Assembly: GCA_031372185.1 (NCBI GenBank)
Contig: JANMKT010000029.1
Location: forward strand, 9,010-73,009
From: Novosphingobium sp.
GTDB taxonomy: Bacteria > Pseudomonadota > Alphaproteobacteria > Sphingomonadales > Sphingomonadaceae
Length of the DNA: 64,000 bases
Direction: 5' to 3'
Under the pieces are notes generated by a model. It had not been told where the DNA came from and searched no databases. It saw only the letters and a list, made by a program, of their open reading frames with translations. Positions 3,002 through 55,270 of this stretch are shown here, one piece after another (the stretch's first letter is position 1; each line of letters begins with the position of its first letter). A program made the position numbers and the translations under genes.

Positions 3002-3330
3002 TGGCTGCGCGAGGAACGGTCCTGATCGTATCTACTGGAGGCGGGTTTCGTGCCAAGCCGCGCCCTGCGGTTGTCATTCAGGACTCGCGATACGAATTTG
3101 CCGAGACGATCATCGTGGTTCCGCTCACAAGCTTTGAAATCGACGAAGATCCGGCGATGCCGCTCTTTCTTCCCGACGGCGGAAACGGTCTTGCGGAAGC
3201 AAGTCGATTCATGACTCAAAGGATGGGTGCGATTCCAAAGTCTGATGTTGGACGCGTTATTGGCGTTCTGTCGGAGGAAGACCTGGAACGGGTCGATCTC
3301 GCTCTCCAAATGGTGCTTGGCTTGGGCTAA
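3001..3330 (+). CDS. PemK/MazF-family toxin
   Basis: RG..V....KPRPAVVIQD....IVVPLTS pattern of PemK-like endoribonucleases. Confidence 0.88.
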   Translation: MAARGTVLIVSTGGGFRAKPRPAVVIQDSRYEFAETIIVVPLTSFEIDEDPAMPLFLPDGGNGLAEASRFMTQRMGAIPKSDVGRVIGVLSEEDLERVDLALQMVLGLG

Positions 3331-3376
3331 CCAAAGCCGCTGGCGTGAGGCTGCACGACCGGCTACCGGATATTGC

Positions 3377-5617
3377 ATGCCCAAACCCCAGCCTGGCCTG
3401 CCCAGCCCCAAACAGATCCTCGAATTCGTCGCCAGCTCTCCCACGCCCGCAGGCAAGCGCGAGATTGCCCGTCATTTCGGCCTCAAAGGGCAAGAGAAGA
3501 TCGCGCTCAAGGCGCTGCTCCGCGATATGACCGATGAGGGCCTGATCGACGGCGAAAAGCGGGCGTTCCACCGGATGGGCGGAGTGCCCAAGGTCACCGT
3601 ATTGCGGGTAATGGTGATCGAGGACGGCGAGGCCTTCGCCATCCCCGACAATTGGTCACCCGATGATGCCAGCCCTCCGCTGCGGCTGCGGCTGGTCGAA
3701 AAGGGTAGCCGCAGCGCGCTCAAAGTGGGCGACCGGGTGCTCGCCCGGACCGAGGAAGCGGGCGCCGGGTGGCGCGCGTTCCCGATGAAAAAGCTGCCCG
3801 CCAGCGAAGAGCAATTGCTCGGAGTGGTGGAAATTGACGGAGCGGGGAAGGGCTGGCTGGCTCCGGTCGACAAGCGGGTCCGCAACGCCTCGCCGATTGT
3901 CGATCTGGGCGGAGCGGAAGCGGGCAATCTGGTGCTGGCTGAACCTGCCGGGCGCTCGACCCGCGCAGGGGTCAAGGTCACTCAGATCCTCGGCGATCCG
4001 CTCGCGCCGCGCGCCTTCAGCCTGATTGCAATCCACAAGTACGGCATTCCCAATAGCTTCGACGAAGAAACGCTGGACGAGGCGGTGCTTGCTGCCAAAC
4101 TGCCATTGAGCGCCGAAAAGCGCGAGGATTTGCGCCACCTCCCGATTGTCGCGATCGATCCCAGCGATGCGCGCGATCATGACGATGCGATCTGGGCTGA
4201 GCCCGATGACGCGGGCGGTTTCCGGGCGCTGGTGGCCATCGCCGACGTCTCGTTTTATGTCCGCCCCGGCAGCCTGGTAGACCGGGAGGCGCGCAAACGC
4301 GGCAATTCGGTTTATTTTCCGGACCGGGTCGTGCCGATGCTGCCCGAAGTGCTGAGCGCCGATGTCTGCAGCCTGCGGGCCGGTGAGGACCGGGCGGCAA
4401 TGGCCTGCCATCTGGCAATCGATGCCGATGGCCAGGTGACGTCGTGGCGCTTCACCCGCGCCATCGTCCGGATCGCCGAAGTGATTGCCTATGAAGAAGC
4501 GCAAAAGCGGATTAATGAGGGGACAGCAGGGACAAGCTTGCAGAACCTGTGGGCCGCCTGGCGCGTGCTGGCTGCGGCCCGCGCTGCCCGTGATCCGCTC
4601 GACCTTGACCTGCCCGAGCGCCGGGTGATGCTGGATCAGCAGGGCCGGATTACCGAAATTGCCTTGCGCGAGAGGTTGGATGCGCACCGTGTGGTCGAGG
4701 ATTTCATGATTTCCGCCAATGTTGCGGCTGCCAAAGCGCTGGAAAGCAAGCTCGCGCCAGTGGTTTACCGAATCCACGAACCGCCGAGCCGGGAAAAGCT
4801 GGTTGCGCTGAAGGATTACCTCGCCAGCTTCGAGCGCAAGTTCGCACTGGGTCAGGTCATCACCCCCAGCCTATTCAACCGACTTCTCAAGGATGTCATC
4901 GATGATACTGAAAAGGCGCTGATCATGGAGGCGGTTCTGCGCAGCCAGACTCAGGCCTACTACGGACCGAGCAATGCCGGACATTTCGGATTAGCGCTGG
5001 CCAGCTACGCCCATTTCACCTCGCCAATCCGCCGTTATGCCGATCTTCTGGTTCACCGCGCGCTGGTCGATGCCTTCCACCTAGAACAGCCGGCACCACA
5101 AAACGGACTTCCCGCAGCCTCAGGCCTGTCGAGCCGCGACCGCGAAGATCTGGGCAAGGTCAGCGAAGCGATCAGCGCAACTGAGCGCCGCGCGATGATG
5201 GCTGAGCGCGAGACGACCGACCGTTATGTCGCCGCCTGGCTATCCGCCCGCGTGGGTGAGGTTTTTGCGACCCGGATCACCGGGGTCCAGAAATTCGGCT
5301 TTTTCGCCACCATCATTGGCCTTGGCGGTGATGGGCTGGTCCCGGTTTCAACGCTTGGTGCCGAGCGGTTTTCCTATGATGAAAGCGCCCAAGTGCTGAG
5401 CGGCGAGCAGAGCGGCACCAGCTATGCCATGGGTATGATCGTCCGCCTGCGTCTGGCCGAGGCCAATGCGCTGACCGGCGCGTTGAAGTTCGAGCTGGAA
5501 CAAGGCGGGAGCAGCAGGATCGAGCCGCGCGGCACCCGGCCTGTGAAACCGGGCAAACACATGGTCGGCAAGCGCGGTCGTCCCGGCAATATGCGGCACT
5601 CGAACCGCAAGAAATGA
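3377..5617 (+). CDS. rnr: ribonuclease R family exoribonuclease
   Basis: RNB motifs DPSDARDHDDA and HFTSPIRRYADL; C-terminal S1 domain; ATG at 3377 chosen over the upstream in-frame extension. Confidence 0.9.
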   Translation: MPKPQPGLPSPKQILEFVASSPTPAGKREIARHFGLKGQEKIALKALLRDMTDEGLIDGEKRAFHRMGGVPKVTVLRVMVIEDGEAFAIPDNWSPDDASPPLRLRLVEKGSRSALKVGDRVLARTEEAGAGWRAFPMKKLPASEEQLLGVVEIDGAGKGWLAPVDKRVRNASPIVDLGGAEAGNLVLAEPAGRSTRAGVKVTQILGDPLAPRAFSLIAIHKYGIPNSFDEETLDEAVLAAKLPLSAEKREDLRHLPIVAIDPSDARDHDDAIWAEPDDAGGFRALVAIADVSFYVRPGSLVDREARKRGNSVYFPDRVVPMLPEVLSADVCSLRAGEDRAAMACHLAIDADGQVTSWRFTRAIVRIAEVIAYEEAQKRINEGTAGTSLQNLWAAWRVLAAARAARDPLDLDLPERRVMLDQQGRITEIALRERLDAHRVVEDFMISANVAAAKALESKLAPVVYRIHEPPSREKLVALKDYLASFERKFALGQVITPSLFNRLLKDVIDDTEKALIMEAVLRSQTQAYYGPSNAGHFGLALASYAHFTSPIRRYADLLVHRALVDAFHLEQPAPQNGLPAASGLSSRDREDLGKVSEAISATERRAMMAERETTDRYVAAWLSARVGEVFATRITGVQKFGFFATIIGLGGDGLVPVSTLGAERFSYDESAQVLSGEQSGTSYAMGMIVRLRLAEANALTGALKFELEQGGSSRIEPRGTRPVKPGKHMVGKRGRPGNMRHSNRKK

Positions 5618-5620
5618 GAT

Positions 5621-5712
5621 CCGTCGTCCCCGGCTTGACCGGGGGACCGCTGGCCTCATCTACGCAAGGTCGGATCGACGAGGCCAGCGGTCCCGGATCG
5701 AGTCCGGGACGA
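5621..5712. repeat. CGTC-type palindromic REP-like element between convergent rnr and usp
   Basis: Ends tcgtccc/gggacga; central stem ggaccgctggcctc/gaggccagcggtcc; two terminal hairpins; shares 27 identical nt with a pdhC coding segment. Confidence 0.85.
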
Positions 5713-5715
5713 AGA

Positions 5716-6296: not shown

Positions 6297-7535
6297 ATGC
6301 CGATCGAAATCAAGATGCCCGCGCTGTCCCCCACCATGGAAGAGGGGACGCTGGCCAAATGGCTGGTCAAGGTGGGCGACAAGGTGCTGTCGGGCGACAT
6401 CATGGCCGAGATCGAAACCGACAAGGCGACAATGGAATTCGAGGCGGTCGATGAAGGCGTGATCATCGCGATTGCAGTGAGCGAGGGTAGCGAAGGCGTG
6501 AAGGTTGGCACGGTGATCGCCACGCTGGCGGGAGAGGATGAGGATGCGAGCGCAGCACCTGCGCCCAAGGCCGCGCCCGTCGTCCCCGCGAAGGCGGGGA
6601 CCGCTGGCCTCGTCGATCCGACCCCTGCGCCCAGCGCCCAGCGGCCGGAGGCGACGAATGATAGTCGCGTCATCGCCTCGCCGCTGGCCAAGCGGATTGC
6701 TGCGGAGCGCGGGATTGATCTGGCAGGCGTGACAGGCACCGGCCCGGGCGGGCGGATCGTCAAGGCGGACGTTGTGGAAGCAAGGCCGGTGGCAGCCGCT
6801 TCGACAGTGGCCGCGACCACTTCAGCCCCAACACCGGACTTCGGTATTCCCTATGAGGCGGAAAAACTCAACAACATCCGAAAAATCATCGCCCGCCGCC
6901 TGACCGAGGCCAAGCAGACGATTCCGCACATTTACCTCACCGTCGATGTCCGGCTCGATGCGCTGCTCAAACTGCGCGCCGAACTTAACAAGGCACTTGA
7001 AGCACAGGGTGTAAAGCTCTCGGTCAATGACCTTCTGATCAAGGCACTGGGCAAGGCGCTGCTGCTGGTGCCCCAGTGCAATGTCAGCTTTGCAGGCGAC
7101 GAGCTGCGCAAATATGCCCGCGCCGACATCTCGGTGGCGGTGGCTGCGCCATCGGGCCTGATCACGCCGATCATCGTTGATGCCGCCAACAAGTCCGTTT
7201 CGCAAATATCGAGGGAAATGAAAGCACTGGCCGACAAGGCCCGCGAAGGCAAGTTGCAGCCGCATGAGTATCAGGGCGGCACCGCCAGCCTGTCCAACCT
7301 CGGCATGTTCGGGATCAAGCAATTCGATGCGGTGATCAACCCGCCACAGGGCATGATCATGGCAGTCGGCGCGGGCGAGAAGCGGCCCTATGTGGTCGAT
7401 GATGCGCTCGCCATCGCCACCGTGATGAGCGCCACCGGCAGCTTCGATCACCGCGCGATCGACGGCGCAGACGGCGCGGCGCTAATGCAAGCGTTCAAGG
7501 GACTGGTTGAGATGCCTTTGGGCTTGGTGGCGTAA
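6297..7535 (+). CDS. pdhC: pyruvate dehydrogenase E2 dihydrolipoamide acetyltransferase
   Basis: Lipoyl domain (ETDKATME), E3-binding ASPLAKRIA, catalytic DHRAIDG. Confidence 0.95.
6577..6657 (+). repeat. in-frame palindromic REP-like element inside the pdhC linker
   Basis: ccgtc-gtccccgc-gaag-gcggggac hairpin; gggaccgctggcctcgtcgatccgacc identical to the reverse complement of the 5621-5712 element; ends in gacga. Confidence 0.85.
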
Positions 7536-53884: not shown

Positions 53885-55270
53885 CTAATTTGAGCGATCA
53901 CAAACCTGCCGCACCGCATCGGCAATCTTTGCGGGATCGATCAGCGCCGCCTTTTCCAGATTGGCGGCATAGGGCAGCGGCACATCTTCATTGCAGACCC
54001 GCAGCACCGGGGCATCGAGATGATCGAAGCCCTCCTCCATGCAAATTGCCATGATCTCGGAGGCAATGCCGCACACAGGCCAGCCTTCCTCGGCCACAAC
54101 CAGCCGATTGGTCTTGGCCAGGCTCGTCAATACTGCCGAGCGATCAAGCGGGCGCAGCGTGCGCAGGTCGATTACCTCGGCGTTGATGCCTTCTGCGGCG
54201 AGTGTCTCGGCTGCATCCAGGGCCAGTCCGACCCCGATCGAATAGCTGACGATGGTCACATCCGTGCCCTCACGCATGATCCGCGCCTTGCCAATCGGCA
54301 GAACGTGATCATCGAGTTCGGGCAATTCGAAGCTGCGCCCATAAACCAGCTCATTCTCCAGGAAAACCACCGGATCTTCGCTGCGGATCGCGGCCTTGAG
54401 CAGGCCTTTGGCGTCCGCCGCGTCATAGGGCGCGATCACCACCAGGCCCGGAACGCTGGCATACCACGGGCCATAGTTCTGGCTGTGCTGTGCGCCGACC
54501 CGGCTGGCCGCGCCATTGGGACCGCGGAACACCACCGGACAGCGCATCTGGCCTCCGGACATGTAATTGGTCTTAGCCGCAGAATTAATAATATGATCAA
54601 TTGCTTGCATGGCGAAGTTAAACGTCATGAACTCAATGATCGGGCGAAGGCCGCCCATCGCCGCGCCGGTGCCGATCCCAGCAAAGCCGTATTCCGTGAT
54701 CGGAGTGTCGATCACCCGCTTTGGTCCAAACTCGTCGAGCAGACCCTGGGTGACCTTATAAGCGCCCTGGTACTCGGCAACTTCTTCACCCATAACGAAA
54801 ACGCGGGGATCGCGGCGCATTTCTTCGGCCATGGCATCGCGCAAGGCCTCACGCACAGTTGAGGTTTTCATATTTGTGCCAGCCGGAATAGAGGGATCGG
54901 CCTTGCGCGGGGCGTTCTTTTTCGCGTCGTCCCGGACTTGACCCAGGGTCGCTGGAGCCTTGGCGTTTCGTTCCGCAATCACATCGACGAGGCCAGCAGT
55001 CCCCGCTTTCGCGGGGACGATGGTGCCCCCCTCACCACCCATTACCGCGATCACGGTGCCGACTTTCACCCCTTCGCTGCCTTCAGGGATCAGGATCTGT
55101 CCGATAGTACCTTCATCGACGGCCTCGTATTCCATCGTCGCCTTGTCGGTTTCGATCTCGGCCAGGATATCACCGGATTTGACTGTATCGCCTTCCTTGA
55201 CCAGCCATTTGGCCAGGGTGCCTTCTTCCATGGTCGGCGACAGGGCGGGCATTTTCAGTTCGATTGCCAT
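53885..55270 (-). CDS. pdhB: pyruvate dehydrogenase E1 beta subunit with N-terminal lipoyl domain
   Basis: Lipoyl ETDKATME; [31 protein letters not shown]. Confidence 0.97.
54925..55023 (-). repeat. full-length in-frame palindromic REP-like element forming the pdhB linker
   Basis: 99 bp; minus strand ccatc-gtccccgc-gaaa-gcggggac-tgctggcctcgtcgat...gggtcaagtccgggacgacg; same family as 5621-5712 and 6577-6657. Confidence 0.87.

Follow-up and report, generated by a model that had tools for sequence, protein, structure and literature searches.

In-frame copies of a palindromic repeat family in the interdomain linkers of PdhB and PdhC, and in other essential genes, of Novosphingobium

The stretch of DNA analysed here (the window) comprises 64,000 nucleotides (nt) from Novosphingobium sp. 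(assembly GCA_031372185.1, contig JANMKT010000029.1, positions 9,010 to 73,009 of the forward strand), whose draft genome, hereafter G000, amounts to 2.64 Mb and is 94.6% complete. The window carries, on opposite strands, the genes for two subunits of the pyruvate dehydrogenase (PDH) complex, and each of them contains a copy of the same palindromic repeat family, read in frame between protein domains. As judged from open reading frames (ORFs) and Pfam matches, pdhB (53885..55270, minus strand) encodes an E1 beta subunit of 461 aa with an N-terminal lipoyl domain (Biotin_lipoyl, residues 4-77; Transket_pyr, 138-309; Transketolase_C, 327-449), and pdhC (6297..7535, plus strand) encodes the E2 dihydrolipoamide acetyltransferase (Biotin_lipoyl, 4-77; E3_binding, 125-159; 2-oxoacid_dh, 186-410).

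The pdhB copy occupies 54925..55023 on the minus strand according to nhmmer. Its 99 nt, read on the sense strand from 55023 to 54925 (CCATCGTCCCCGCGAAAGCGGGGACTGCTGGCCTCGTCGATGTGATTGCGGAACGAAACGCCAAGGCTCCAGCGACCCTGGGTCAAGTCCGGGACGACG), begin with CCATCGTCCCCGCGAAAGCGGGGACTGCTGGCCTCGTCGAT, end with GACCCTGGGTCAAGTCCGGGACGACG and align end to end with the family model (positions 1-90, E = 2.5e-11). Together with flanking bases of the terminal inverted repeats, the copy encodes 31 residues, PdhB 85-115. A preliminary description of this DNA had placed the element in the linker and given it most of that space; it does lie within the interdomain linker (78-137), of which it fills about half. The same description had reported hairpins at both ends. 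The 5' terminal hairpin (54999..55018, minus strand; GTCCCCGCGAAAGCGGGGAC, 8 bp with a GAAA loop, read as VPAKAGT) is indeed intact and folds at -17.0 kcal/mol (z = -5.8), whereas the 3' one (54931..54947, minus strand; CCCTGGGTCAAGTCCGGG) is eroded, its fold of -7.5 kcal/mol (z = +0.3) being no better than that of shuffled sequence; the whole element reaches -38.7 kcal/mol (z = -1.1). In the orthologous pdhB of G010, another genome of the genus, the 3' hairpin is perfect (GTCCCGGATCAAGTCCGGGAC). Compared with it, G000 has four changed positions in the 5' half of the stem and no compensation in the 3' half.

The copy in pdhC (6578..6656, plus strand; about residues 95-120 of PdhC) is also in frame and also lies between Pfam domains, the first of which ends at residue 77 and the next starts at 125. 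One arm (6577-6617 in pdhC) matches that of pdhB over 41 nt with 93% identity and in the same frame, so that PdhB and PdhC have 12 identical residues, exactly as had been described. The pdhC copy extends beyond this arm, which belongs to an element of about 79 nt in which the 5' arm is intact and about 12 nt of the 3' hairpin have been lost. In the nhmmer alignment, the pdhC copy covers one half of the family model only. Orthologous copies, which are intact and full length in G010 and in loci L105, L176 and L184 of Novosphingobium metagenome-assembled genomes (MAGs), show the pdhC copy of G000 to be a shortened whole element and not a mere 41-nt arm. Its 5' hairpin is intact (6582..6601, plus strand; GTCCCCGCGAAGGCGGGGAC) and shows one mismatch to the pdhB hairpin. 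For the 20-nt hairpin motif the window holds two matches, where chance would yield 0.01.

A genuine repeat family stands behind these two copies. An nhmmer search of the whole 2.64-Mb draft genome, seeded with the intergenic copy 5621..5714 (between convergent rnr-like and usp-like genes) and iterated once, yielded 86 loci, most of them 91-94 nt long, with a clean consensus. As a free copy, the seed provides the standard for an intact element; its fold is at -61.9 kcal/mol (z = -6.9). As the alignment shows, the family element is a nested palindrome of about 92 nt, bounded by the terminal inverted repeats CGTCGTCCC...GGGACGACG. Either end holds an 8-bp hairpin whose stem occurs as GTCCCGGA, GTCCCCGG or (G/A)TCCCCGC and whose loop is CTTGA/TCAAG or GAAA/TTTC, and the inner inverted arms (CGCTGGCCTCRTCGA / TCGAYGAGGCCAGCG) flank a variable centre of about 12 nt. 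In addition, about 20 terminal hairpins occur solo in G000.

The distribution of the family is narrow. Among 40 relatives it was found in eight other genomes of the same genus only, which is to say in part of Novosphingobium, and it was absent from the relatives searched in all 16 other genera of the order. A search for the exact 21-nt arm pattern across about 185,000 species returned almost only Novosphingobium MAGs and a few isolates, plus scattered chance matches; strain MW5 and N. aerophilum 4Y4 gave one arm match each. [quoted passage not shown]

In order to find further coding copies, all 86 loci were scanned for spanning open frames with coding-like flanks, the frames were translated and the host proteins were checked in Pfam. 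Only about five of the 86 copies lie within genes. Besides the two PDH copies, there are three genuine in-frame insertions in G000, in ileS, glyS and tsaD, all in Pfam-confirmed hosts. In IleRS, 34 residues are inserted between PQWFVPMDA and REK in the same frame as the PDH copies; in GlyRS-beta, ANILKKE is followed by GVVPAQAGTAGLIDATSAPGDQRSPVEPGSTN and then by ALSY; in TsaD, the element is read in a different frame, as DRRPGLVPGPLASSTRGRDDEASGPRFRGDGG. The IleRS and TsaD inserts fall at loops of about six residues in the solved homologs 8wnf and 6nak. Other Novosphingobium genomes contain, in frame, the same glyS insert, an insert at a second glyS site, the full-length pdhC inserts, an rnr insert and an ileS insert (in G007). 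In total, seven sites in six genes harbor the element, and at six of the seven the 5' arm is read in the same frame. Five other spanning ORFs (C45:77730, C36:6745, C59:31382, C81:2557 and C11:91226) were rejected as probably spurious antisense or high-GC frames, given their Arg/His-rich translations and poor codon-position GC; the one at C45, the sole member of the five put through Pfam, gave no match.

The rnr-like gene of the window (3227..5617) holds a related detail. At 4517-4537 (plus strand), the sequence GAGGGGACAGCAGGGACAAGC encodes EGTAGTS, and exactly this site is taken up by a full in-frame copy (SVVPENAGTAGLIDAPSRFVACGPGSRPGRR) in the ortholog of G010 (L184:4302-4391). The seven codons of EGTAGTS may be what remained after an internal deletion between the GGGAC repeats.

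Six-frame translation of the consensus offers a simple reading of the shared peptide. With the CTTGA loop, which is the common one, the peptide frame contains a TGA stop; it is open only in the GNRA-type loop variant, where CCCCGCGAAAGCGGGG gives PAKAG. The other open frames of the consensus code for Arg/Trp/Cys-rich peptides. In the shared frame, the family peptide is small and rich in Ala, Gly, Pro and Thr (VPA[KNQ]AGTAGL(I/V)D...GQRSPVEPGTT). Survival in essential genes would pick the same loop variant and the same frame each time, and such a frame filter would be sufficient to account for the 12 residues common to PdhB and PdhC as well as for the near-identical peptides of IleRS and GlyRS-beta.

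Two origins had been proposed for the PDH copies: independent insertions tolerated in lipoyl linkers, or a short conversion tract by which one of the paralogous 5' ends, that of pdhB or that of pdhC, passed the 41-nt arm and, with it, the 12 residues to the other gene. The coding regions of the two lipoyl domains (6297-6457, plus strand, and 55110-55270, minus strand) are 83% identical over 161 nt and would provide a recombination substrate for such an event, and the loop bases look genome-matched, with GAAA/GAAG in G000 and GAAC/GAAC in G010. However, similarity is interrupted past the lipoyl domain, and some 90-120 nt follow before the arm begins. Throughout the genus, the DNA of the lipoyl domains clusters by gene, and the pdhB-pdhC identity within G000 (0.769) is on a par with the mean identity to the pdhC of other genomes (0.758). 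Since the lipoyl regions group by gene, their similarity reflects old paralogy under strong constraint and not recent conversion. The arm of pdhB, in turn, is as close or closer to other copies of the family, with one mismatch in 36-37 nt to the copies at C112, C108 and ileS, as compared with two in 38 nt to the pdhC copy. Moreover, the two PDH copies differ in their centres and 3' hairpins, the G010 pdhC copy is a complete and different element (its right hairpin is GTCCCCGGTCGAGCCGGGGAC, against GTCCCGGATCAAGTCCGGGAC in pdhB), and the same peptide also occurs in IleRS and GlyRS-beta. A conversion tract spanning the lipoyl domains is likewise rejected on the lipoyl DNA tree, the identity table and the nearest-copy comparison.

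Mapping of presence and absence is in line with separate events. The pdhC insert occurs in G000 and G010 only, among relatives with a readable linker, and the pdhB insert in five genomes (G000, G010, G001 and G022, plus a remnant in G007); most orthologs of either gene lack the repeat. Given these different species distributions and the differing centres and 3' hairpins, the pdhB and pdhC copies are separate insertions, as one of the two proposals had it. Gene conversion between pdhB and pdhC is not supported by the comparison of sequences, and we consider it extremely improbable.

The PDH copies are the most degraded members of the family in G000. For intergenic copies the median fold per 90 nt is -65.9 kcal/mol (-80.8 to -50.6 between the 5th and 95th percentiles), as compared with -36.5 for the pdhB copy, the weakest of all full-length copies, and -47.0 for the pdhC copy. 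Only the 5' hairpin is intact in both (-17.5 kcal/mol in pdhB and, for the 27-nt end, -18.2 kcal/mol in pdhC). Between G000 and G010, the element-coded PdhB peptide is identical at 20 of 31 residues (65%), against 92% in the flanking domains. Because the PDH copies are the most eroded, nothing points to an mRNA hairpin under selection.

On a rival reading, the hairpin right after the lipoyl domain would be selected as an mRNA signal, either a translational pause giving the domain time to fold or an RNase-protected boundary, and the repeat would have been recruited for it in both PDH transcripts. In this regard, a perfect 8-bp GNRA hairpin (-17 kcal/mol) lies 6-18 codons past the lipoyl domain in both genes, and what separates the stems GTCCCGGC/GCCGGGAC (G001, G022 and G007) from GTCCCCGC/GCGGGGAC (G000 and G010) is one compensatory pair, at synonymous sites. 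Across the family, though, both stem variants exist as free members and follow the dominant variant of each genome, and therefore the apparently compensatory pair is better explained by different source copies. The variants of the GNRA-type hairpin are in fact partly genome-specific in stem and loop (G000, G010, G007, G001 and G008): G007 has mostly CCCGGCG(AAA/CAG)GCCGGG and G000 mostly CCCCGCG(AAA/AAG)GCGGGG, AAC is added in G010, and G001 and G008 have other dominant loops. This pattern suggests concerted evolution or family turnover within each genome. Further evidence weighs against a selected signal. The majority of orthologs in the genus show no hairpin at this site; ileS, glyS and rnr contain the same hairpin with no autonomous domain before it; decay of the second hairpin and of the central stem went uncompensated; and the stems of G010 pdhC and G001 pdhB contain mismatches. 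A PDH-specific function of the hairpin is consequently very unlikely.

We therefore favor, with a probability of roughly 0.85, the reading that takes the pdhB segment for an old copy, by now partly decayed, of a palindromic repeat that is non-autonomous and has a MITE/REPIN shape, a copy that landed in frame and was tolerated as linker. Copies would insert anywhere in the genome; within essential genes, the survivors would be those insertions that have an open frame and sit in a flexible linker or a surface loop. The filter imposed by the GNRA loop would then leave the unrelated PdhB, PdhC, IleRS and GlyRS-beta with nearly the same peptide. Once inserted, the segment would behave as ordinary linker, drifting fast while the total linker length stays roughly constant and losing its fold-back structure via point changes and small in-frame deletions. 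The host proteins presumably remain functional, and the pattern as a whole probably reflects the survival of tolerable insertions and not a function of the element.

Several observations weigh against this interpretation or sit uneasily with it. No mobilising enzyme was found. Y1 transposase (RAYT, PF01797) is absent from G000, within the limits of a draft that is 94.6% complete; a PF01797 search of 12 genomes likewise gave none in the family carriers G000, G007 and G022, and the Y1_Tnp loci of G010, G001, G003, G008 and G018 have no copy of the element within 1.5 kb. In G000, no pair of solo ends within 3 kb brackets a gene as a cargo composite would, nor did paired ends within 3 kb reveal a parent insertion sequence with matching ends. 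Comparison of filled and empty ileS sites gave no clear target-site duplication, the linkers being too variable. Judging from ORFs that stay intact in essential genes, the peptide is probably made in cells. The partly genome-specific hairpin variants described above are not what simple vertical decay would predict, and in both PDH copies of G000 the 5' hairpin is perfect while the 3' one has decayed. These are two cases, not separable from chance; the kept 5' hairpin would be compatible with a degree of constraint or with other copies homogenising it.

The closest known parallel is provided by the palindromic elements of Rickettsia (RPE; Ogata et al. 2000/2002, summarised in PMC10969869), copies of which many housekeeping genes contain in frame. 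Both are short, multicopy palindromic repeats without a transposase gene, found intergenically as well as in frame in unrelated housekeeping genes, where they add a peptide at fold-compatible positions; in both, several families exist per genus and copies decay after insertion. The host, however, is a free-living, GC-rich (61.6%) freshwater Novosphingobium instead of an obligate intracellular, AT-rich Rickettsia, the element is shorter (about 92 nt, against about 100-150 for RPE) and has two terminal 8-bp hairpins plus a central stem, and the genic share (about 5 of 86 in G000) is much smaller than reported for RPEs. The Novosphingobium family, found in that genus only, can thus be regarded as an analog of the RPEs and not as a member of them; it behaves as they do, with a REPIN/MITE-like architecture.

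Other repeat classes resemble the family in part. As in REP/REPIN systems, the terminal unit is an imperfect palindrome of 20-25 nt that also occurs solo, the full element consists of two inverted units that form a long hairpin, and copies are mostly extragenic, often between convergent genes; in contrast to those systems, no repeat-flanked Y1_Tnp (RAYT) gene accompanies the Novosphingobium family in the genomes searched. To our knowledge, REP/REPIN elements are not noted for in-frame residence in genes. With intragenic MITEs such as ERIC and Correia, the family has in common the terminal inverted repeats, a length below 200 nt, the lack of an ORF of its own, the multicopy state and the occasional in-frame fusion with host ORFs (PMC10969869), whereas gene insertions of Correia and ERIC are mostly disruptive or regulatory. 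On the protein side, the repeat peptide sits where a flexible linker is expected in the E2 subunits of 2-oxoacid dehydrogenases and in alphaproteobacterial lipoyl-bearing E1 beta subunits and, like such linkers, it is rich in Ala, Pro, Gly and Thr and evolves fast, with the total linker length kept; the difference is that its sequence stems from a mobile repeat and not from the usual Ala/Pro tract of the orthologs.

Taken as a whole, the family is an unreported but ordinary parallel to the Rickettsia palindromic elements and not a PDH-specific device. The preliminary description, which had singled out the PDH copies as the most novel-looking signal of the window, overstated their novelty in this respect, as in-frame palindromic elements were known from Rickettsia; no new regulatory device of PDH is revealed. 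What it adds in interest is the frame filter, along with the recurrent occupation of identical codon positions by different families. The occurrence of selfish palindromic DNA read in essential proteins is extended from an obligate intracellular genus to a free-living, GC-rich freshwater one, and a simple rule for the survival of copies emerges, namely an open frame, a floppy peptide of small residues and a site in a linker or loop. The recurrently used positions provide a natural map of insertion-tolerant sites in PdhB, PdhC, IleRS, GlyRS-beta, TsaD and RNase R. For annotation, there is a warning that identical peptides in unrelated proteins can be repeat-derived and need not mean shared function or gene conversion.

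How often the pdhB site was hit is a separate question. The tree used here (from IleRS, PdhA and the PdhB core) supports the terminal clades, leaves the genus backbone unresolved and does not fix the number of independent pdhB gains. The five pdhB carriers, a group chosen with the tree already in view, do not form one clade in the approximately unbiased (AU) test (delta lnL 472, p about 1e-129), and on this poorly resolved backbone the insert requires five state changes. PdhB measures 443-474 aa with or without the repeat, which therefore stands in place of linker sequence and adds no length.

The same pdhB position is also used by a different palindromic family, family B, as opposed to the family described so far (family A). 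Family B has outer repeats CCCACCCCC/GGGGGTGGG and inner hairpins CCCCTCCCGCAAGCGGGAGGGG, counts about three copies in G000 and gives HPxPLPQAGG / PLPLAGGxGGG peptides in frame. It is read in frame in pdhB of G003, G013 and G023 (L006, L017 and L018) and in ileS of G004 (L078). G001, with family A, and its sister G003, with family B, have their inserts at the same pdhB position, both followed by VRPEAAxRPxDP, and the pair G022 (A) and G023 (B) repeats this sister pattern. In glyS of G000 (C11:35477-35576), family B stands in frame where another MAG has family A.

These data bear on whether the pdhB insert arose a single time, long ago, in an early ancestor within Novosphingobium and was passed on vertically, to be lost or overwritten many times thereafter. 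The element starts exactly nine residues after GTVIA in four of the five carriers, G000 and G010 have common flanks (DDAKK..RKADP), and the heavy erosion of the copies marks them as old, all of which agrees with such a history. Nevertheless, supported sisters either lack the insert or have family B at the same position (G001/G003 and G022/G023), the carriers do not form one clade in the AU test, with the reservations given above, and in G000, G010 and G007 the pdhB copy has the hairpin variant that dominates in the respective genome. We thus see the single old insertion as a real but minority possibility and lean towards recurrent insertion at a preferred or uniquely permissive pdhB site over one old insertion with many losses.

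The loop of IleRS after PQWFVPMD (L061-L090) is likewise a hot spot for in-frame insertions: six species have nothing there, two have family A, and most others have longer inserts. Some loop motifs are common across species, as in LRQAQGER..NPAQxELVE (G010 and G020), SPSQVDGE..SPSTCDGEV (G003 and G008) and KTPGEKRWE (G014 and G015); among the loop inserts, only the family-A and family-B-like ones have been tied to a repeat family. Reused positions have thus been seen in the PdhB linker, in this IleRS loop and at a GlyRS-beta site. A speculative extension, which we hold to be rather unlikely, is that several unrelated palindromic families repeatedly overwrite the same few permissive codon positions at constant protein length, so that mobile-repeat DNA would keep supplying new sequence for the interdomain linkers and surface loops of essential proteins. 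If this were true, the cause could be site-directed insertion, for instance into pre-existing hairpins; dispersed copies might homogenise the coding ones, which would explain the genome-specific hairpin variants; and ordinary Ala/Pro linkers could in part be decayed repeats.

A minor observation concerns the PdhC linker outside the genus. In G035 (L058), from another family of the order, this linker contains PSLPRKRESSAEEKVDSRLRGNDE, which has the look of a further GC-rich, in-frame repeat, here in a different genus.

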